A stretch of 64,000 nt of DNA from an uncultured Candidatus Saccharibacteria bacterium (lineage in GTDB: Bacteria > Patescibacteriota > Saccharimonadia > Saccharimonadales > JAGQNK01). Shown here one piece after another: positions 3,732 to 29,369 of the stretch (within the stretch, counting starts at the first letter, position 1; every line of letters starts with the position of its first letter). The position numbers and the translations under genes are program-made. The stretch covers positions 32,746-96,745 of the forward strand of contig CAZWRG010000002.1 of NCBI GenBank assembly GCA_964636355.1, in the 5' to 3' direction. Under the pieces are notes generated by a model. That model was not told where the DNA came from and did no database searches. It saw only the letters and a list, made by a program, of their open reading frames with translations.

Positions 3732-6284
3732 TTATTTTTGAAAAAAGTTTTTGATTTCTTGTAGGTCGCGTTCTTTCCAGGCAGACTGCCAGGTGAGCAC
3801 TTCAATTCCTTGGTTTATAGCCCGTTCAAAAGCTGGTGTCTTTTTGGGTAGGAAAAAATCTTTAAACTTAACCAGGAAGTCCCGGTTGCTGTAAGCGTTG
3901 GCGGCAAACATTGGGAATCTATAAAAGCTAAGGTCGTCGCCCAAGTTTTCTTCCAGCCAATCCCAATGTTTTTTAATCCATTCCCAGGTTGCGTCGCGTG
4001 CAAAACGGTTTGAGAAACTATACGCTACCCAATATGACACGTCTTGCAACCTAACAGAATCGGAATTGATGAGCTTAAGAGCTCTTTTGATGAGCTCCGG
4101 CTGCTTGAAGTTGGTTAATGCGGCGGCAATAGTGACCCGTTCTTCGCTGGAACTGCTGGCTTCATGAAGCTCAAAAAGTTTATCAAAAGTCGTTTTATCG
4201 CCATGACGAGCCACGCTGGTGTAAATAATGCTTTTAACGTCAGGAGAAATATCCTCAGGTTTGGTCATCGAATTAAATCTATGATGGCACTGCTTGATTG
4301 TTTCAGGGTGATCAGCGCCGGCTGCCAGCCCAAGAATTGTCGGCCTGAGTAGTCTCTGGAAATGGGTTTCATCGTCTTTCGGCTCCCAGCCTAAAATCTC
4401 TAATTGCTTGGCAACTAAGCGGTGGATGTAGGGCTTCATTGATTCTCTTAGCGATTCATCGTCCATCGCTGATCGAGTGGCGGTTATGCCGCTCGCCATG
4501 ACATCCCAAACAGCGTTATCGGATTCTTCTTTGAAGTATTCCAGGAACTTAAAAGCTTCTACAGTTTGGCTCTTGCCAGCTTTCGCTGTTTCAAAAACGT
4601 CACTTAAAATGCCTAGCCTATCTAGTGGCGAAAGTTCACCTTTATCAATTAGCTGACCTAGTCGCGCTAGATGCTCCCGGTCATAAGTCACCCTGTAAAA
4701 ACCGCTTTGTCCGCGGTTAAGTTTGAAATTAGAATTATCCTTAAGAGCGAAGGTTTTAGACTCAGTACTGAGCAGTTCTGGAATGTCTGAATTATTGGCT
4801 AGTAAAGCGATTGGCCAGGTGTCTGATGAGGTTTTTTGAGTTTCTGGATTAATGAAAAACCGTTGCTGTTTGAGTTCAACAGAGCCTGGGTTTAGCTTTG
4901 CTTCGACTATCGGGAAACCGGACTGAGAAGTCCATTTGTGCATGAAATCCTTAACTGGTTTGCCAGATACTTCCTCTAGAGCTTTCCAAAGATCAACCGT
5001 GTCGGTATTGCCGTATTCGTGTTTTTTCAGATAATGACGCAAACCATCACGGAAAGTTTCAGCGCCCAAATAATCATTTAACATATGAATCGCGCTGGCG
5101 CCTTTGCTGTAACTGATGGTGTCAAAAATTGACCTAATTTCATCGGGGTGATTAATTGGCACTTCAATCGGGTGAGTGTGCTCCAAAGCATCAAGTTTAA
5201 AGGCCCGATGCTGTTCGTCGACGGCAAATTGTGTCCACATTTGCCACTCCGGGAAAATATGATCAACCGCCAGGTATTCAATCCAGCTGGCAAAACCTTC
5301 ATTTAGCCAGAGATCGGTCCACCAGCGCATGGTCACTAAGTTTCCAAACCACTGATGAGCTAATTCATGAGCTACCACCATGGCTACATATTGCTTGGTT
5401 GAAACGCTGGTTTTTTTAGGATCAACCAGCATAGTGTGTTCGCGGTAGGTGACCAGACCCCAGTTTTCCATGGCGCCTGACGCAAAATCTGGCAGAGCCA
5501 CCATGTCCAGTTTAGGCAGCGGATATTTGATATCGAAATATTGATTGTAAAATTCCAGGCATTTAACGGCGACGTCCAGGGCAAAATCGGTGTAGTCAAC
5601 GTTGTCAGGCGTGGCGTAAGTGCGAACCGTCACGCCATCTTTGGTAACAGCTTCTTTATAAGACATATTGCCGTAAACAAAAGCCAGTAAATAAGTGCTC
5701 ATCTTTGGGGTGGTTTCAAAAGAGGTGGTCACGAAATCGCCTTCGACAGCTTCTTTTTTAACAGGTGTATTGGCAATTACTTTTTCGCCGTTTGGAGTTG
5801 TAAGCGTCAGGTCAAAAGTTGCCTTGGCCTGTGGCTCATCAATGCAAGGGAAAACTTCTCTGGCGTGATGACTTTCAAACTGGGTGGCGATCAATTGTTG
5901 TTTTTTGCCAGCGTGCTCGAAAAAACAGGGGTAAATGCCATTCATCGCTCGAGTAATTTTACCCTTAAATTTGAGCTTGATGGTGTATTTGCCGGGGTAT
6001 AAAACCTCCGAGGTGTGGAGTCTTACTTCATCAGAGCTTCTGTGGTGGTTTATGCGGCTGACTTTAATTGTAAGCTCGCCGGATTTATCGTGTTTTATTA
6101 TTTCGGCATCGGTAATTTTTAAATCTTTTTGGTGGAGGGTGATTCTTTGGCTGGGACGTGAGGTCTTTTTGCCGCTCAGCGTTAAGGAGCCGCTAAAATC
6201 CTTATGTTCGCGCCGTGGTTTTAGGTGCAGATCATAATGTTCTGGTTGATAGTCAGTGTATAAATGCTTTAAATTTTTCCCCAT
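3732..6284 (-). CDS. pepN: M1-family aminopeptidase N
   Basis: GAMENWGL exopeptidase motif and HELAHQWFGNLVT..x..WLNEGFA zinc site; 850 aa. Confidence 0.9.
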   Translation of the reverse strand: MGKNLKHLYTDYQPEHYDLHLKPRREHKDFSGSLTLSGKKTSRPSQRITLHQKDLKITDAEIIKHDKSGELTIKVSRINHHRSSDEVRLHTSEVLYPGKYTIKLKFKGKITRAMNGIYPCFFEHAGKKQQLIATQFESHHAREVFPCIDEPQAKATFDLTLTTPNGEKVIANTPVKKEAVEGDFVTTSFETTPKMSTYLLAFVYGNMSYKEAVTKDGVTVRTYATPDNVDYTDFALDVAVKCLEFYNQYFDIKYPLPKLDMVALPDFASGAMENWGLVTYREHTMLVDPKKTSVSTKQYVAMVVAHELAHQWFGNLVTMRWWTDLWLNEGFASWIEYLAVDHIFPEWQMWTQFAVDEQHRAFKLDALEHTHPIEVPINHPDEIRSIFDTISYSKGASAIHMLNDYLGAETFRDGLRHYLKKHEYGNTDTVDLWKALEEVSGKPVKDFMHKWTSQSGFPIVEAKLNPGSVELKQQRFFINPETQKTSSDTWPIALLANNSDIPELLSTESKTFALKDNSNFKLNRGQSGFYRVTYDREHLARLGQLIDKGELSPLDRLGILSDVFETAKAGKSQTVEAFKFLEYFKEESDNAVWDVMASGITATRSAMDDESLRESMKPYIHRLVAKQLEILGWEPKDDETHFQRLLRPTILGLAAGADHPETIKQCHHRFNSMTKPEDISPDVKSIIYTSVARHGDKTTFDKLFELHEASSSSEERVTIAAALTNFKQPELIKRALKLINSDSVRLQDVSYWVAYSFSNRFARDATWEWIKKHWDWLEENLGDDLSFYRFPMFAANAYSNRDFLVKFKDFFLPKKTPAFERAINQGIEVLTWQSAWKERDLQEIKNFFQK

Positions 6285-6312
6285 ATAGACCAGTGTACCT
6301 CGGAGCTAGCGA

Positions 6313-6342
6313 TTGACACAAGCCAGCAGGTTAATGTATGAT
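6313..6342 (+). promoter_or_regulatory. candidate sigma70-type promoter for nusA
   Basis: TTGACA (6313-6318), 18-nt spacer, TATGAT (6337-6342). A small hairpin with a T6 run (agtcg..cgactttttt, ~6358-6383) lies in the leader. Confidence 0.4.
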
Positions 6343-6457
6343 AGATTTGTTCTGATTAGTCGGCCAGCAGGTCGACTTTTTTCATGCCTTTCATGTAGAA
6401 ACCAACAAAGCTACCTGAAATTGACAAATAAATACAAGCTAGATAAGGAGAAAAATA

Positions 6458-7642
6458 ATGGATTTAGATGTAAAACAATTGGCCCTGGCTGTCAAAGCAA
6501 TCGCTGAGGAAAAGAATCTGCCAGCTGATACTGTGCAAGAAGTCGTTGAGCAGGCGCTGGCGGCTGCCTATAAGCGTGATTATGGCGACCGTGAACAGGA
6601 AGTGCGAATCAGCATGAATGTTCATAGCGGTGAGGTTGATGCTTATGTGACCAAAGAAGTCGTTGAGCGGGTTGGTGATGAACACTTTGAAATCAGCTTA
6701 AAAGACGCTCAGGTTATGAAAAAGAACGCCAAAGTTGGTGATGAAATTGAAGTTCACCAAAAAGTAGAAAACTTTGGACGTGTCGCTGCTCAAACTGCCA
6801 AGCAGGTTGTACTTCAAAGACTGCGAGAGGCGGAGCGTGAGATCATCGTTGATGAGTACGAGGACAAAATCGGCACGGTTATCAACGGTATTGTTGGTCG
6901 GGTAGAGGGCCGAATTGTACGAGTTGACCTCGGTAAAGCTCAGGGAATTATGCCGATGAGCGAACAGATTCAAGGTGAAAGATATTATCCTGGGCAGCGC
7001 CTAAAAGTCTACTTAAAAGATGTTGAACGAGGCATGCGAGGCCCGCAGTTGGTGGTGTCCAGGGGCAATACTGAATTCGTGGAGTGGCTATTTAGGGCCG
7101 AAGTTCCGGAGATGGAAACTGGCGCCGTAGAAATTAGTGGTATTTCGCGTGAAGCTGGCGTGCGCAGCAAGATTGCAGTTCGCAGCACAGTTCAAGGCGT
7201 GGATCCGGTTGGTACATTTGTGGGCGGTCACGGCACTCGCGTAAATGCGGTGATGAGTGAAATTGGCGAACAGGAAAAGATTGACATTGTAGTTTGGGAC
7301 GAAGATCCAAAAACTTACATCGTTAACGCCTTAAGTCCAACCAAAGTTGATAAGGTGGAGCTTGATGAGGCTAATAAAAAAGCTAAAGTTACTGTTCCCG
7401 AGGATCAGCTAAGTATTGCCATTGGTAAGGGCGGTCAAAATGTTCGACTGGCTAGCAAGCTGACCGGATATGAGATCGATATCAACTCGTCACAATCTGA
7501 TCAGCCGCTGGATGATAAAGCTCCAGCTGATGTTAAGCCAGCTAAACCAGCTGGTCCACAACCACTTGCCGGTCCAAAGCTTAAGAAAAAAGAACAACTC
7601 GAAAGCAGCCTACTGGAAGCTATCGAAGAACACGGCGAATAG
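6458..7642 (+). CDS. nusA: transcription termination/antitermination factor NusA
   Basis: N-terminal domain plus S1 and KH regions recognisable (GRVAAQTAKQVVLQRLREAERE, QLSIAIGKGGQNVRLASKLTGYEIDI). SD aaggag lies upstream. Confidence 0.9.
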   Translation: MDLDVKQLALAVKAIAEEKNLPADTVQEVVEQALAAAYKRDYGDREQEVRISMNVHSGEVDAYVTKEVVERVGDEHFEISLKDAQVMKKNAKVGDEIEVHQKVENFGRVAAQTAKQVVLQRLREAEREIIVDEYEDKIGTVINGIVGRVEGRIVRVDLGKAQGIMPMSEQIQGERYYPGQRLKVYLKDVERGMRGPQLVVSRGNTEFVEWLFRAEVPEMETGAVEISGISREAGVRSKIAVRSTVQGVDPVGTFVGGHGTRVNAVMSEIGEQEKIDIVVWDEDPKTYIVNALSPTKVDKVELDEANKKAKVTVPEDQLSIAIGKGGQNVRLASKLTGYEIDINSSQSDQPLDDKAPADVKPAKPAGPQPLAGPKLKKKEQLESSLLEAIEEHGE

Positions 7643-7869: not shown

Positions 7870-7917
7870 AAGTATCTTTTATTTGAAATTATCACACTTG
7901 GCCAATATCCTCATGAT

Positions 7918-7956
7918 TTAGCACTCTTGACTTGGGAGTGCTAATTTTGTTACTAT
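7918..7956 (+). promoter_or_regulatory. perfect CIRCE inverted repeat overlapping the clpC promoter
   Basis: TTAGCACTC (7918-7926), N9, GAGTGCTAA (7936-7944). The N9 spacer contains TTGACT (7927-7932), and TACTAT (7951-7956) follows 18 nt later. Confidence 0.8.
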
Positions 7957-8028
7957 GTATTTGTGACAATTTACGCTGAATATGAGAATACGATTCTTTT
8001 ATAATAAACGGTGGAGGGATGAATAAAT

Positions 8029-10530
8029 ATGACACCAAACTCATCTGATTTCCAAGAATTTTTGAACCATTTAACTGATAATGCTCTGCAAAGTTTAAAG
8101 CACGCCGATGCGATTGCTAGAAGCTTTGGCAGTGCTTATGTGGGCACTGAGCACTTGTTGCTGGGAGTCTTGGCTCAAGACACCAGCATGGGCTCCAAGC
8201 TTTTAGAAGGTGCTGGAGTAACTTTGGACCGAGCGCAGATGGCGCTTAATCTAACACCTAAAACTTTGGTCATTAATATGGGAGCCAAAGGTCTGAGCGA
8301 GACAGCCAAGCTAACTCTTAGGATGGCCTATGATGTGGCTCAAGATTTTAATCAGGAATTTTGCGGCACAGAGCATATTTTATATAGTGTGCTGTCGCAG
8401 AAAAATGCCCGGGCGACGGTTCTGCTTAGGGATATGAAGGTTAATGTTGATGGGTTGATGACCGAACTTGAGCAATTTCTAAATCGCCAACAATATGAAA
8501 GTGGCGGTCAGGGAGCTTCGGACAGTCGGCGCAAGTCTAAAAAACAGAAAAAAACGGCACTAGATTTCTTTGGCACAGATCTAACTGCTCAAGCCAGAGA
8601 TGGCAAGCTGGATCCGGTGGTCGGGCGTGAGGCTCAAATTCGCCGGGTAGTTACTATTTTGAACCGTCGAACAAAAAATAATCCAGTTCTAATTGGAGAG
8701 CCAGGGGTTGGTAAAACCGCGATTGCCGAAGGTTTAGCACAACGAATTGTAGCCGAGGAAGTGCCTGATAGCTTGCTTGAAAAACGAATAATTATGCTTG
8801 ACCTGGCCGGAATGATTGCCGGGACCAAATATCGTGGTGAATTTGAAGAGCGGCTTAAAAAAGTTATGGCTGAGCTGGAGAGTGACAACAAAACAATTGT
8901 CTTTATTGATGAGCTTCACTTGATTGTGGGCGCCGGCGCAGCCGAGGGGGCCATGGATGCTGGAAATATCTTAAAACCAGCTCTAGCCCGCGGGAAAATT
9001 CAAATGATTGGCGCTACAACCACGGCTGAATATACTAAGCATATTGAAAAGGATTCAGCCTTAGAGCGCAGATTCCAGCCAATTCAAGTGCCCGAGGCTA
9101 CCAACGCTGAAACTCTGGCCATCCTTAAAGGCCTCCGCAAACACTACGAAGAATTCCACGGAGTTACAGTTAGCGATGAAGTTTTAGAAGACACTGTAAC
9201 TTTGGCCAAAAGATATATAAATGATCGATTCATGCCTGATAAAGCCATTGATCTGCTCGATGAAACGGCGGCTCATTTACGGGTTGATAAGGGCAAAACA
9301 CCGCCCGAAGCACGTAAATTGCAAAAGGAATTAAAGCTAGTCAATGTTCGGATTGAAGAGGCGGTTGATAACGAAGATTATGAAAAAGCTGCCAAGCACA
9401 AACAGCGAGCGTCGCAGATAAAAGAGCAGCTTGATCAGCTTGAGCAAGATGGCAAAACTGCTAATAGCCTGACAGTTACCAGTGAGGATATTGCCGAAGT
9501 TGTGGCTCGTATTACCGGAGTTCCGGTCACTAAGGTCATACGTTCGGAAGCAAAATATTTGTTAAACCTGGAAAAGAATCTCCGAAAATTCGTGATTGGC
9601 CAGGATGAGGCGGTCGAGGCGGTGTCTAAGGCTATTCGTCGAAACCGAGTTGGCATTGGCAGCAGTAAACGTCCAATTGGCTCGTTTATCTTCTTGGGTC
9701 CAACCGGTGTTGGTAAGACTGAGCTAGCGAGAATACTAGCCAGAGAATTCTTTGGCTCGGAAGATTCGCTGGTCAAGATTGATATGAGTGAATTCGGCGA
9801 GCATCATAACGTTTCACGTCTGGTTGGAGCACCGGCTGGTTACGTTGGTTATGACGAAGGCGGCCAGCTGACTGATAAAATTCGCCGACAACCATATAGC
9901 TTGGTGTTATTTGACGAGATCGAAAAAGCCCACCCGGAAGTCTTTAATATGCTGCTTCAGATTTTAGAAGACGGTGTGTTGACTGACGCTAAGGGCCGAA
10001 AGATCGATTTCACAAACACTGTCGTAATCATGACCAGTAACATCGGTGCCGAGAAGCTGCAAAAAGAAGCTGAGCTTGGTTTCCACGCCATAGACAGAAG
10101 CGACATGAACAACCTTGATAGCCTGCACAGTATCAATAAAAGCAAAGTTTTTGATGAGCTTAAAAAGATGATGCGGCCAGAGCTACTAAATCGAATTGAT
10201 AAAACAATTGTCTTCAGAGCGCTTACTAAAAAAGATGTGCTTAGGATTCTAGATCTACAGATTGATGAACTCCGTCAGCGTTTGATTAAGCACGGCATAG
10301 ATTTACAGCTGTCCAGATCTGCCAAAAATCATCTGCTGGAAGAAGGCTATGATTCGCATAATGGTGTGCGACCGCTAAGAAGGTTAATCGCCGATACTAT
10401 CGAGGATCATATTGCTCACGAATTGCTTGATAATAAATATCATAAAGGTCACATCATAAAAGTAAATGCTCGAGGTGGTAAGTTGGTTTATTCAGCCGAA
10501 TCTGAAGTCAAGCCTCAAGCAGTAGTGTAA
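8029..10530 (+). CDS. clpC: ClpC-type AAA+ chaperone ATPase
   Basis: Two Clp_N repeats, two Walker A sites ([16 protein letters not shown]) and a UVR-like linker ([20 protein letters not shown]); 833 aa. Confidence 0.9.
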
Positions 10531-10539
10531 ACTAAAACC

Positions 10540-11469
10540 ATGAACAAAATTGCCGGTTTAGCATTTTGGTTGATCGCTATCGGTCTGCTTGTAGTGTCGG
10601 TTTTGGGCTTTTTGAATCGCCAGGAAATATATGATTGGTGGCGGCTAAGAGATTATTCGCCGCCGCCAGAAATCGCTCAGCTGGCCACCGACACTACCAT
10701 GCAAGACAAGGCTCGGCGTTTGTTTTATGTGTATCGGCCAGAGCTTAATGATCGTCTGCAGTTTAATCAAAACTGTACTCATTTTGAAGAAACCATTGTG
10801 CTGGGCTGTTATGTTTCGAACCTGGGTATATATTTGTTTGATGTCGATGATCCGCGGCTGCACGGTGTTCAGCAAGTCACCGCCGCTCATGAGCTGCTAC
10901 ATGCGGCTTATGATCGGCTGGGCGCAGAAGAGAAAGCTCGGGTTGATAAACTAACGGCTGACACTTTTGCTTCGCTTAATAATCAGCGAATCATAAGAAC
11001 AATTGAAAATTATAAGTCACGCGATCCGTCGGTAGTCCCCAATGAGCTGCACTCTATATTGGCGACCGAAGTTCGAGAGTTGCCTGAAGAATTAGAAGAA
11101 TATTATAAAAAGTATTTTTCTAATCGCTTAAAAATTGTCGAATATTCTGAAAAATACGAGTCAATTCTCACTGAAAGAAAAACCAAAGCCGTTACTTTAG
11201 AGGCTCAAATTACGGGGCTAAAAAACGATATCGAATTGACCGAAGCAGAGCTTAATCAGCAACGAAACAGATTACAGCAAGACAGAGCCAATGTGACTAA
11301 CCAACAGCAAGCTCGGGCATATAATCAGCGAGTCGAAGCCTACAACGCCAGCATCAAAGAGCTGAACAGCATGATTGACCGTCACAATAAATTAATCGAA
11401 GAATACAAACGAAACGCCTTTGAAGCTCAGGAATTGTACGAGGCGATTGATAGTCGACCAACCATATAA
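10540..11469 (+). CDS. membrane-anchored protein with HExxH motif and C-terminal coiled coil
   Basis: N-terminal TM helix (LAFWLIAIGLLVVSVLGFL), AAHELLHAAY, and a Q/N/E-rich heptad-like tail. Confidence 0.5.
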   Translation: MNKIAGLAFWLIAIGLLVVSVLGFLNRQEIYDWWRLRDYSPPPEIAQLATDTTMQDKARRLFYVYRPELNDRLQFNQNCTHFEETIVLGCYVSNLGIYLFDVDDPRLHGVQQVTAAHELLHAAYDRLGAEEKARVDKLTADTFASLNNQRIIRTIENYKSRDPSVVPNELHSILATEVRELPEELEEYYKKYFSNRLKIVEYSEKYESILTERKTKAVTLEAQITGLKNDIELTEAELNQQRNRLQQDRANVTNQQQARAYNQRVEAYNASIKELNSMIDRHNKLIEEYKRNAFEAQELYEAIDSRPTI

Positions 11470-26834: not shown

Positions 26835-28124
26835 ATGCAAGTAAAAATAACTCACCCAACCAAGACTCAGGCTGTTTTGACAGTCATCGCCGGCGACAAA
26901 GAGCTGGCTCCGATTAAAGCTCATGTATTGACTCATTTTAAAGATAGAGTCAAAGTTCCGGGCTTTCGAGCCGGTAAAATTCCAGCTGAAATATTAGAGA
27001 AAAACATTGATCCAAATGTTCTTCAGACCGAGTTTTTAGAAGACGCCATTGAGCAGCTTTATGTAGCCGCCGCCCAGGGCGAGAAGATCAGACCAGTTGA
27101 TCGCCCGAAGATAGATATTAAAAAATTTGTGCCTTATAGCACTTTAGAATTTGAAGCTACCGTAGACGTAATCGGCGAAATTAAACTGCCAGATTATAAG
27201 AAAATTAAAAAATCAAAACCGGAAGTTAAAGTTACTGCCGAGGACGTAAATGATGTTTTAAAGTCACTTCAGTCCCGTCTGGCTGATAAAAAGGACGTCA
27301 CCAGGGCCGCCAAAGATGGCGATCAGGTGTTTATTGATTTTTCTGGAGTTGACGCTAAGACCAAAGAGAAAATCAATGGTGCTGATGGCCAAAACTATCC
27401 GCTGGTGATTGGCAGCGGTACTTTTATCCCGGGGTTTGAGCCGGAGCTGATTGGGCTTAAAGCCGATGAGACTAAGACATTCACGGTGACTTTTCCAAAA
27501 GACTACGGCGTGGCAGCTCTAAAATCTCGCAAAGTCGAATTTACGGTGACCGTAATTAAGGTTCAGGAAGTTATTGAGCCAAAACTTGATGATCAGTTTG
27601 CGGCTAAAGCCGGGCCGTTTAAGACCTTAAAAGATCTAAAAGATGATATTAAAAAGCAGTTTGCTAACGAAAAGCAAACTAAAGCAAACCAGGATTTTGA
27701 GTCCGAGCTTGTTAAGCAAATCAGCGACAAAAGCAAAGTAGAGGTTCCTGAGGTTCTGGTTAATGATCAAGTAGAGCGGCTGCTAAATGAAATCAGACAA
27801 AACGTGGCTTACCGCGGTCAGACAATTAAGGAATTTTTTGAGCTGGAAGGCAAAACCGAGAAGCAATACAGGGATGAAATCCTAAAGCCCCAGGCATATG
27901 ACCGTGTAAAGGCCAGTCTGGTGTTGGCTGAAATTGCCGAGCAGGAAAAGCTTGACGTGACCGCAGAGGAGTTGGAAGCAAGAATGCAAAGTCTGAAGAA
28001 TCAATATCAAGACCCGCAGATGCAAGAAGAGCTTAACAAGCCCGAAGCCCGGCGCGATATAGCAGCTCGACTGCTGACTGAAAAAACAGTTAAAAAATTA
28101 ACAGATTACGCTACCACTAAATAA
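26835..28124 (+). CDS. tig: trigger factor
   Basis: N-terminal ribosome-binding GFRAGKIP motif, central FKBP-like domain (GDQVFIDFSG...FIPGFE) and the canonical position upstream of clpP. Confidence 0.9.
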   Translation: MQVKITHPTKTQAVLTVIAGDKELAPIKAHVLTHFKDRVKVPGFRAGKIPAEILEKNIDPNVLQTEFLEDAIEQLYVAAAQGEKIRPVDRPKIDIKKFVPYSTLEFEATVDVIGEIKLPDYKKIKKSKPEVKVTAEDVNDVLKSLQSRLADKKDVTRAAKDGDQVFIDFSGVDAKTKEKINGADGQNYPLVIGSGTFIPGFEPELIGLKADETKTFTVTFPKDYGVAALKSRKVEFTVTVIKVQEVIEPKLDDQFAAKAGPFKTLKDLKDDIKKQFANEKQTKANQDFESELVKQISDKSKVEVPEVLVNDQVERLLNEIRQNVAYRGQTIKEFFELEGKTEKQYRDEILKPQAYDRVKASLVLAEIAEQEKLDVTAEELEARMQSLKNQYQDPQMQEELNKPEARRDIAARLLTEKTVKKLTDYATTK

Positions 28125-28142: not shown

Positions 28143-28700
28143 ATGAGTATAGAGTTCGATTCACAACCAGTCGTATCATTGAGAGCCGCATCGCCAGAGC
28201 AACAGCCCCAGCCGCGATTTGGCAGTCGCCTGACGCGTCCTGCTTTCTGGGCTCTGGCAACTAATCAAATTAATAAAATCTATGAGGTATTTGAGCAGAC
28301 TGGCCACGACGAAGTAATGTTAACAAACCCCACGATTAGCCCCTTTGTGCCAGCTGTTTCTGTTACTCGCGACCAAGACGGAGGCGGAAGTATATTAATA
28401 ACCTTTAAATCTATGGTTCGTCCATCCCGAAGAGAAAAAGAACTCCAGGTTCATTTTGCCAGAGATAATCATGAGTTAGATGACAACCACACCGTAAACG
28501 AAATATCCCAAATAAATTGTCATCGACGCGAATTTAGTGTTGGCTTTGGTAGGCCGATTTCTCATCAAGAGTTACACATTGACAATCAAGGTAAATTCAC
28601 CGGCAAATTGAGCCCAATTTCCGTTTTAATTGGGCTGGAAAGAGCCGTAATGTCCAGAAAACAGCTAAACCCACCAGCCGCACGGCAAGTTGAGCTATAA
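28143..28700 (+). CDS. hypothetical protein, 185 aa, inserted between tig and clpP
   Basis: Uninterrupted ORF with no recognised motif. Confidence 0.45.
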   Translation: MSIEFDSQPVVSLRAASPEQQPQPRFGSRLTRPAFWALATNQINKIYEVFEQTGHDEVMLTNPTISPFVPAVSVTRDQDGGGSILITFKSMVRPSRREKELQVHFARDNHELDDNHTVNEISQINCHRREFSVGFGRPISHQELHIDNQGKFTGKLSPISVLIGLERAVMSRKQLNPPAARQVEL

Positions 28701-28716
28701 CAAATTAGCGCCAAAA

Positions 28717-28754
28717 TTAGCACTCTTGACACGAGACTGCTAATTTCTTACAAT
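28717..28754 (+). promoter_or_regulatory. CIRCE-like inverted repeat (1 mismatch) overlapping a consensus clpP promoter
   Basis: TTAGCACTC (28717-28725), N9, GACTGCTAA (28735-28743). TTGACA (28726-28731), N17, TACAAT (28749-28754). The clpP ATG is at 28764. Confidence 0.75.
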
Positions 28755-28763
28755 TAAAGTACT

Positions 28764-29369
28764 ATGAACAAACCAACCAACGCTACATTGATTCCAACAG
28801 TTATTGAACAAGACGGCCGCGTGGAGCGAGCCTATGATATTTACTCCCGCCTATTAAAAGATAGGATTATCTTTTTGGGTGATGGCGTTAATGAGCACAC
28901 CGCTAATTTAATTGTTGCTCAGCTGCTGTTTTTGGACAACGAAGATACTAACAAAGATATATTCTTATACATCAATAGCCCTGGCGGCAGCGTATATGAC
29001 GCTTTGGCGATTTACGACACCATGAAGTATGTCAAATCAGACATCCAAACCGTGGGGATTGGTGTTCAGGCCAGCGCCGCGGCTTTTCTGCTAAGCTCAG
29101 GAACCAAAGGTAAGAGGTTCTTATTGCCTCACTCGACGGTTATGATTCATCAGCCAAGTTCAGGCACGCGCGGTAAGGTCACCGATCAGGAAATTGACCT
29201 TAGAGAATCGCTACGGGTAAAGAAACTACTGGAAGAAATTATGGCCAAAAACACTGGTCAAAAAGTATCCCGGATTCACGATGACATGGAACGTGACAAA
29301 TGGCTGACCGCTGAAGAAGCCAAAGATTACGGCATTGTCGACAAGGTTATCAAAACACCACCAAAGTAG
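28764..29369 (+). CDS. clpP: ATP-dependent Clp protease proteolytic subunit
   Basis: [24 protein letters not shown] and the MIHQP catalytic region. Confidence 0.95.

Follow-up and report, generated by a model that had tools for sequence, protein, structure and literature searches.

A CIRCE operator built into the clpP promoter of Saccharibacteria, a candidate target of HrcA

The CIRCE operator and its repressor HrcA form a classical regulatory system. In Bacillus subtilis, the HrcA regulon is limited to two chaperone operons, and CIRCE is located past the promoter, at the transcription start or beyond it. The Clp protease genes clpP and clpC are normally controlled by CtsR in Firmicutes, by ClgR in Actinobacteria and by sigma-32 in Proteobacteria, and the clpP gene of Streptococcus salivarius is reportedly under dual regulation by CtsR and HrcA (Chastanet & Msadek 2003, as cited in PMC3842655 and PMC6305308). 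Leaderless mRNAs are common in Actinobacteria, Deinococcus and archaea. Gene regulation in Saccharibacteria and other Patescibacteria is, to our knowledge, almost uncharted; our literature searches found no paper linking HrcA or CIRCE to these lineages, and none tying leaderless mRNAs to them. In most bacteria, groESL is the sole constant HrcA target, often accompanied by the dnaK operon (PMC545781, PMC3842655). The HrcA regulon of Mycoplasma pneumoniae comprises lon, clpB, pepA, dnaK, dnaJ and groESL (PMC7737663).

We analysed a stretch of 64,000 nucleotides (64 kb) from an uncultured Candidatus Saccharibacteria bacterium, hereafter the window, in which a CIRCE operator lies directly upstream of clpP. 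With a probability of about 0.8, we read this element as a CIRCE operator built into a sigma-70-type clpP promoter that is repressed by HrcA, relieved under stress and followed by a leaderless mRNA. The finding is a new target and a new lineage for the known HrcA/CIRCE system, and not a new kind of system. Saccharibacteria share with B. subtilis the 9-N9-9 repeat consensus, an HrcA made of winged-helix and C-terminal domains, and the autoregulated hrcA-grpE-dnaK-dnaJ and groES-groEL operons. They differ from it in having the −35 box within the operator, clpP and clpC among the predicted targets, a repressor that is approximately 100 aa shorter and a clpP transcript predicted to be leaderless. 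M. pneumoniae offers a closer parallel in layout, with a small genome, HrcA placed over the chaperones and the main quality-control protease, and the order tig, CIRCE, protease; there, however, the protease is Lon and the tig promoter is reported to drive lon, whereas the saccharibacterial protease is ClpP and its CIRCE has a conserved promoter of its own. The saccharibacterial case is thus the ClpP/ClpC counterpart of the Mycoplasma arrangement in an unrelated phylum with reduced genomes. S. salivarius gives a precedent for clpP as an HrcA/CIRCE target, but in that species HrcA acts together with CtsR, whereas no CtsR box is found near clpP or clpC here and the control appears to be lineage-wide. 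The CtsR class III regulon of Firmicutes (clpP, clpC, clpE) resembles the present case in its clpP and clpC targets and in having a promoter-bound repressor released by proteotoxic stress; its operator, however, is a tandem GGTCAAA heptad read by another repressor, and was not found at the clp genes of the window. The likeness to known leaderless mRNAs consists of a −10 box 6-11 nt before the start codon, no Shine-Dalgarno (SD) sequence and an ATG start, while saccharibacterial clpP differs in that predicted leaderless and SD-led forms of the gene occur among sister species. The features of the locus are as follows.

26835-28124, plus strand: tig (trigger factor; TIGR00115, 357 bits), the conserved upstream neighbour of CIRCE-clpP
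28143-28700, plus strand: ORF of 185 aa that fills the variable gap between tig and clpP, with no recognisable relatives
28717-28743, no strand assigned: CIRCE operator, presumed HrcA site, TTAGCACTC-TTGACACGA-GACTGCTAA, one mismatch, kept in relatives
28726-28731, plus strand: −35 hexamer TTGACA, coinciding with bases 1-6 of the CIRCE spacer (the register called type A below), from a promoter scan
28749-28754, plus strand: −10 hexamer TACAAT, 17 nt past the −35 box, from the promoter scan
28761-28764, plus strand: predicted transcription start, inferred to fall at A 28761, giving a 3-nt leader, or at the first base of the ATG (28764), giving a truly leaderless mRNA
28764-29369, plus strand: clpP, coding for the 201-aa proteolytic subunit of the ATP-dependent Clp protease, a clear ClpP (NCBIfam NF001368, score of 293 bits, exceeding the cut-off)

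By its inverted repeat, its spacer of precisely 9 nt and its small number of mismatches, the operator qualifies as a CIRCE. Its left arm TTAGCACTC (28717-28725) and right arm GACTGCTAA (28735-28743) flank the spacer TTGACACGA (28726-28734), and the only departure from the consensus TTAGCACTC-N9-GAGTGCTAA is a G to C change at operator position 21. The repeat covers the −35 box and part of the spacer of a promoter that serves a protein-quality-control gene and, counted from the predicted transcription start, spans about −44 to −18. This promoter, TTGACA-N17-TACAAT, agrees with the consensus at 11 of 12 positions, is the top promoter-like site between 26000 and 30000, and has the near-consensus hexamers, 16-18 nt spacing and conservation in relatives of a sigma-70-type promoter. 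Nine nucleotides (28755-28763) separate the −10 box from the clpP ATG, and no SD-like sequence is present among them. An initial annotation of this DNA had described a one-mismatch CIRCE-like operator overlapping this promoter, with 9 nt between −10 box and ATG and no SD, and each of these points holds. A clpP start upstream of 28764 is excluded by an in-frame TAA at 28755-28757. The alternative start at TTG 28788 (M-IPTVIE) was rejected as the primary one; it lacks a preceding SD and is further disfavoured by the recurrence of MNKP/MSNP-type N-terminal extensions in relatives that start at a leaderless ATG. Separately, the 8-nt string AAATTAGC occurs twice, 12 nt apart, at 28702-28709 and 28714-28721; the second copy is the beginning of the CIRCE left arm with its AA flank, and the first could be a vestigial half-site or a chance occurrence.

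Scanning both strands of the window for CIRCE-like sites with at most three mismatches returned two, one at clpP and the other, at 7918-7944, in front of clpC. In 100 dinucleotide-preserving shuffles of the window no match appeared, so that two sites are observed where zero are expected by chance, and the resemblance of the clpP site to CIRCE is not a chance one. The initial annotation had argued that two operators of the same architecture, both on clp genes, are unlikely to be a coincidence, and the pairing with clpC proves to be conserved as well. The sister locus has the following features.

7918-7944, no strand assigned: perfect CIRCE upstream of clpC, with TTGACT (7927-7932) in the spacer and −10 box TACTAT (7951-7956)
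8029-10530, plus strand: clpC-type Clp ATPase, 833 aa, with a leader of approximately 66 nt and a GGAGG SD at 8013-8017

The architecture is indeed common to both sites, as had been claimed: the left arm is identical and the spacer starts with TTGAC in each, the −10 box at clpC lying at 18-nt spacing from the embedded −35 box. Eight independent Saccharibacteria-like metagenome contigs also carry a perfect CIRCE with embedded TTGAC before clpC; they share the gene order of the window, nusA-clpC-(309 aa)-radA, with ClpC identities of 60-65%. In Saccharibacteria-like metagenome clpC loci the −35 box takes a third register within the spacer, with two bases on either side. The gene preceding clpC in the window is nusA, not ctsR-mcsA-mcsB. 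Two observations can be added on this locus. The leader made from the CIRCE promoter contains a perfect TATAAT at 8000-8005, just ahead of the GGAGG SD and 24 nt before the clpC ATG. A good −35 box is lacking, and the hexamer might be either a second, weak promoter that does not depend on HrcA or a product of chance. The 309-aa ORF between clpC and radA (10540-11469) has only weak coiled-coil (SMC-like) matches, and its position is kept, with about 30% identity, in four Saccharibacteria-like contigs (L085, L168, L177 and L196); since it would be co-transcribed with clpC, it may belong to the HrcA regulon.

Comparison among species places the clpP operator on firmer ground. Using ClpP as query against one genome per species, we collected 80 loci, every one from Candidatus Saccharibacteria/Saccharimonadales or unclassified Patescibacteria, with ClpP identities of 80-90%, which places the window in a TM7 bacterium. 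An exact copy of its ClpP turned up only on a Logan contig of 1.2 kb. Conservation was counted in the 78 loci that include upstream DNA, and the footprint was built from 79 sequences. CIRCE lies directly upstream of clpP in all 78 loci, which supports a real CIRCE; most copies have 0-2 mismatches, 77 have three or fewer and one has four. Only one further CIRCE with at most three mismatches occurs in the 593 kb of clpP loci. In the alignment of 79 sequences, operator positions 4-6, 8-9, 19-20, 22-24 and 26 are invariant and the arms as a whole nearly so, whereas there is hardly any information content in the flanks or in those spacer bases that lie outside the promoter. In sequence terms, such conservation of arms against drifting flanks is the classic picture of a phylogenetic footprint. 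Only 3 of 79 sequences have the G to C change at position 21, which falls at a nearly invariant site and might weaken binding; the same arm GACTGCTAA, however, recurs as the right arm of the second hrcA operator in a Saccharibacteria genome (L208), so the variant of the window is probably tolerated.

The overlap between promoter and operator is likewise borne out by the relatives, all of which have the −35 motif within the spacer, placed in either of two registers. In type A, represented by 42 sequences with the window among them, TTGAC comes right after the left arm, replaced by TTGC in two loci; in type B, represented by 37, TTGAC comes right before the right arm. A TAnnnT −10 hexamer follows the embedded −35 box at 16-18 nt in nearly all 78 relatives, and since this is true of both registers, the −10 box moves with the −35 box. 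As a side observation, metagenome contigs unlike Saccharibacteria (from human gut, fermentation and other sources) carry perfect CIRCE copies with TTGAC just before the right arm, located upstream of hsp20 (L082, L097, L104-L111, L114, L116, L121, L125 and others) and of clpB-like genes (L103, L129, L130, L166, L170 and L197). The design with the −35 box in the spacer is therefore not unique to CPR bacteria.

The same alignments bear on whether the palindrome acts mainly at the RNA level, as a terminator hairpin for tig or for the 185-aa ORF, its likeness to CIRCE being secondary. The transcribed repeat would fold at −12.8 kcal/mol (z = −3.6) and is followed by UUUCUU, and 15 of 75 loci have the tig stop codon no more than 40 nt from the repeat, too close for a separate terminator to fit between them. 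Against this, the arms are kept as the specific HrcA-operator sequence, beyond what mere pairing would demand, and a plus-strand terminator scan does not call the hairpin. T-rich tails are not enriched next to tig, being present in 5 of the 15 loci where tig abuts the repeat and in 31 of the 64 others, and the T-richness is accounted for by the promoter spacer. The repeat also stands before hrcA and groES, beside divergent or unrelated neighbours. We consider the terminator reading improbable and retain that of a DNA operator.

The tig gene itself is a stable neighbour, with tig-clpP synteny in 74 loci. The distance from the tig stop to CIRCE, 592 nt in the window, ranges from −4 to 1622 nt among species, which makes the tig-clpP gap a hot spot of variable content. 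The 185-aa ORF that occupies this gap in the window has no Pfam or NCBIfam match and no tblastn homolog in the 80 related and 120 metagenome loci; for want of a family match or a homolog in related loci it was rejected as a part of the regulatory unit, to which it probably does not belong.

Transcription in bacteria usually starts 6-8 nt past the −10 box. Across the 78 loci, the distance between −10 box and clpP ATG is bimodal. In 51 loci, besides the window, the ATG stands 6-11 nt past the −10 box (mode 6-7) without an SD. In 25 others it stands at least 20 nt past it, nearly always with AAGG, GAGG or GGAG before the ATG; the remaining 2 have an ambiguous geometry. A bimodal distribution of this kind is expected if transcription starts about 7 nt past the −10 box, and it therefore supports the promoter together with a leaderless reading. 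The suggestion, made in the initial annotation, that the clpP mRNA has little or no leader thus gains support from the comparison of sequences across species. The 9 nt of the window fall at the long end of the leaderless class, and a 3-nt leader and no leader at all are equally likely for its clpP mRNA.

This geometry also argues against clpP being expressed mainly by read-through from tig, with TTGACA-N17-TACAAT inactive and CIRCE serving as a roadblock or surviving as a vestige. Synteny of tig and clpP is conserved, the gap between tig and CIRCE shrinks to 0-20 nt in some relatives, and lon of M. pneumoniae, which is separated from tig by a CIRCE, is transcribed from the tig promoter (PMC7737663), all of which would suit read-through. 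The −35/−10 pair, however, is kept at correct spacing in nearly all 78 species despite the shift in register, and the ATG tracks the −10 box at 6-11 nt, with no SD, in 51 of them. Ribosomes would make poor use of an internal AUG that lacks an SD, so such tracking only makes sense if transcription starts there. In the window, moreover, tig and the operator are 592 nt apart, with an unrelated ORF in between. Read-through as the main source of clpP mRNA is thus very improbable, and initiation at the embedded promoter is the reading that we carry forward.

Leaderless initiation may extend well beyond clpP. A −10 hexamer matching at least 5 of 6 positions and ending 5-10 nt before the start codon is found at 11 of the 31 SD-less genes in the window and at none of the 29 SD-bearing ones (Fisher p = 3e-4), against a background of 1.8% at random positions. 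Such SD-less starts include 2146, 11506 (radA), 15867 (minus strand, PBP), 15989 (tyrS), 18102, 19674 (recG), 25043 (hisS), 59547 (trpS), 61256 and 62992, while genes inside the ribosomal protein operons have strong SDs. As many first genes of transcription units combine a near-consensus −10 hexamer, ending 5-10 nt before the start codon, with the lack of an SD, leaderless initiation seems to be general in this genome, judging from its sequence.

The repressor has to be sought outside the window. Neither tblastn with probe sequences of these genes, run against the 64 kb window and the 80 clpP loci, nor NCBIfam and Pfam scans of the window ORFs found hrcA, groES, groEL or dnaK. We therefore scanned metagenome contigs for a perfect CIRCE with embedded TTGAC and obtained 120 loci, whose downstream genes encode the following, among others.

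Hsp20: 30 of the 120 loci
HrcA-like proteins of approximately 230 aa: 20 of the 120 loci
Clp ATPases: 16 of the 120 loci
GroES: 10 of the 120 loci
DnaK: 8 of the 120 loci
ClpP: 4 of the 120 loci

One of the HrcA-like proteins (L172) has thousands of relatives, the closest of which include proteins that NCBI names Candidatus Saccharibacteria. The phylum accordingly has an HrcA, of approximately 232 aa, in which PF03444 (winged-helix) and PF01628 (C-terminal) both score above the Pfam cut-offs. HrcA of Saccharibacteria and the HrcA-like proteins of other CPR-like contigs measure approximately 226-245 aa (L172, L176, L202 at 6001-6714, P0001-P0120) and those of Saccharibacteria are approximately 100 aa shorter than characterised HrcA proteins, such as the 338-aa HrcA of Thermotoga maritima (1STZ). 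Comparison of accession prefixes revealed no assembly common to the hrcA or groES matches and the CIRCE-clpP loci.

In a 797 kb Saccharibacteria contig, hrcA heads an hrcA-grpE-dnaK-(NYN)-dnaJ operon, upstream of which stand a perfect type A CIRCE with TACAAT and then a second, weaker CIRCE. A perfect CIRCE with embedded TTGAC precedes hrcA in three Saccharibacteria genomes (L202, L206 and L208), and a perfect type B CIRCE precedes groES-groEL in named Saccharimonadales genomes (L216 and L220). With CIRCE at both hrcA and groES, the canonical HrcA targets use the same operator-in-promoter design as clpP and clpC.

Several observations accompany these loci. CIRCE is present in tandem at the hrcA operon (L202 at 5911-5984; L206 and L208 at 2900-2973) and at dnaK in five other contigs (L083, L134, L135, L144 and L180). 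One site of each tandem holds the −35 box, and the second begins approximately 5-10 nt past the −10 box, level with the expected transcription start or slightly beyond it. In the window, clpP and clpC carry only the first, −35-containing CIRCE of this design. A perfect CIRCE also precedes genes for small FmdB-type zinc-ribbon proteins in three contigs (L094, L098 and L175) and genes for proteins of approximately 307 aa in another three (L118, L120 and L199), the latter being putative RpoH-like sigma factors as judged from their N-terminal sequence. Between groES and groEL of Saccharimonadales there is a conserved ORF of 52-56 aa (L216 at 1767-1937; L219 and L220 at 1764-1934), which has no Pfam match and overlaps both neighbours by a few bases.

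The shortness of the repressor raises the possibility that some regulator different from HrcA reads the operator, or that the short HrcA follows another logic, for example one without GroEL titration. About 100 canonical residues are missing from the protein, and its PF01628 match covers only profile positions of approximately 82-215. A structural model of the short HrcA, of low to moderate confidence (pLDDT 67), has 1STZ as its top PDB match, with a TM-score of 0.66 when normalised by query length but of 0.50 by target length; given this pLDDT, the model was not used to name the missing domain. The winged-helix DNA-binding domain is nevertheless conserved, the N-terminal part aligning to residues 17-98 of 1STZ, and the short hrcA, placed behind a perfect CIRCE at the head of grpE-dnaK-dnaJ, shows the classical autoregulated arrangement. 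The operator sequence is, furthermore, identical to the CIRCE consensus. A different regulator or a different logic is therefore highly improbable in our estimate, and HrcA is the repressor that we favour. Control of the clp genes by CtsR was considered separately and rejected at the sequence level, as no GGTCAAA-NAN-GGTCAAA is present near 7900 or 28700; a heptad scan of the window allowing up to three mismatches gave five matches against 2.7 expected.

These features suggest a simple mechanism. In the absence of stress, an HrcA dimer would bind the inverted repeat at clpP. Because the repeat covers approximately −44 to −18 and holds the −35 box in its spacer, bound HrcA would exclude RNA polymerase by promoter occlusion. 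As unfolded proteins accumulate, GroEL/ES would be titrated away and HrcA would be inactivated, following the titration model that, as cited in PMC7737663, was established in B. subtilis (Mogk et al. 1997); the GroEL dependence and the dimerisation mode of the short HrcA are assumptions here. The promoter would then open, and clpP would be transcribed alongside clpC, groES-groEL and hrcA-grpE-dnaK-dnaJ. Transcription of clpP would begin 0-3 nt before the ATG, and the resulting leaderless or near-leaderless mRNA would be translated without a Shine-Dalgarno sequence. On any read-through transcript from tig the AUG would be internal and SD-less, so ClpP synthesis should depend mainly on the HrcA-gated start, which would govern it even where tig abuts the operator.

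Saccharibacteria thus probably control their protease and their chaperones through the single repressor HrcA. The sites at clpP, clpC, hrcA and groES outline a compact stress regulon that is well conserved and predictable from sequence alone, and they supply a concrete promoter model for the phylum, with the −35 box inside the operator and a predicted leaderless start. In practice, they offer a candidate stress-inducible promoter/operator cassette for the new Saccharibacteria genetic systems and a simple rule for calling the start codons of leaderless genes in Saccharibacteria genomes. They also present a natural case in which one repressor would have taken over targets that are held by CtsR, ClgR or sigma-32 in other phyla. 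A broader proposal, to which we give somewhat less than an even chance, is that the class I and class III heat-shock regulons have merged, in Saccharibacteria and perhaps in much of the CPR, into one HrcA regulon governed by a truncated form of the repressor. If true, hrcA-grpE-dnaK-dnaJ, groES-groEL, clpP and clpC would all answer to this repressor from promoters built inside the operator spacer, and leaderless transcripts would make translation of clpP strictly dependent on the HrcA-gated start. Proteostasis in these ultrasmall episymbionts would then have HrcA as its only master regulator, and the short version of the protein would represent a minimal form of the repressor.
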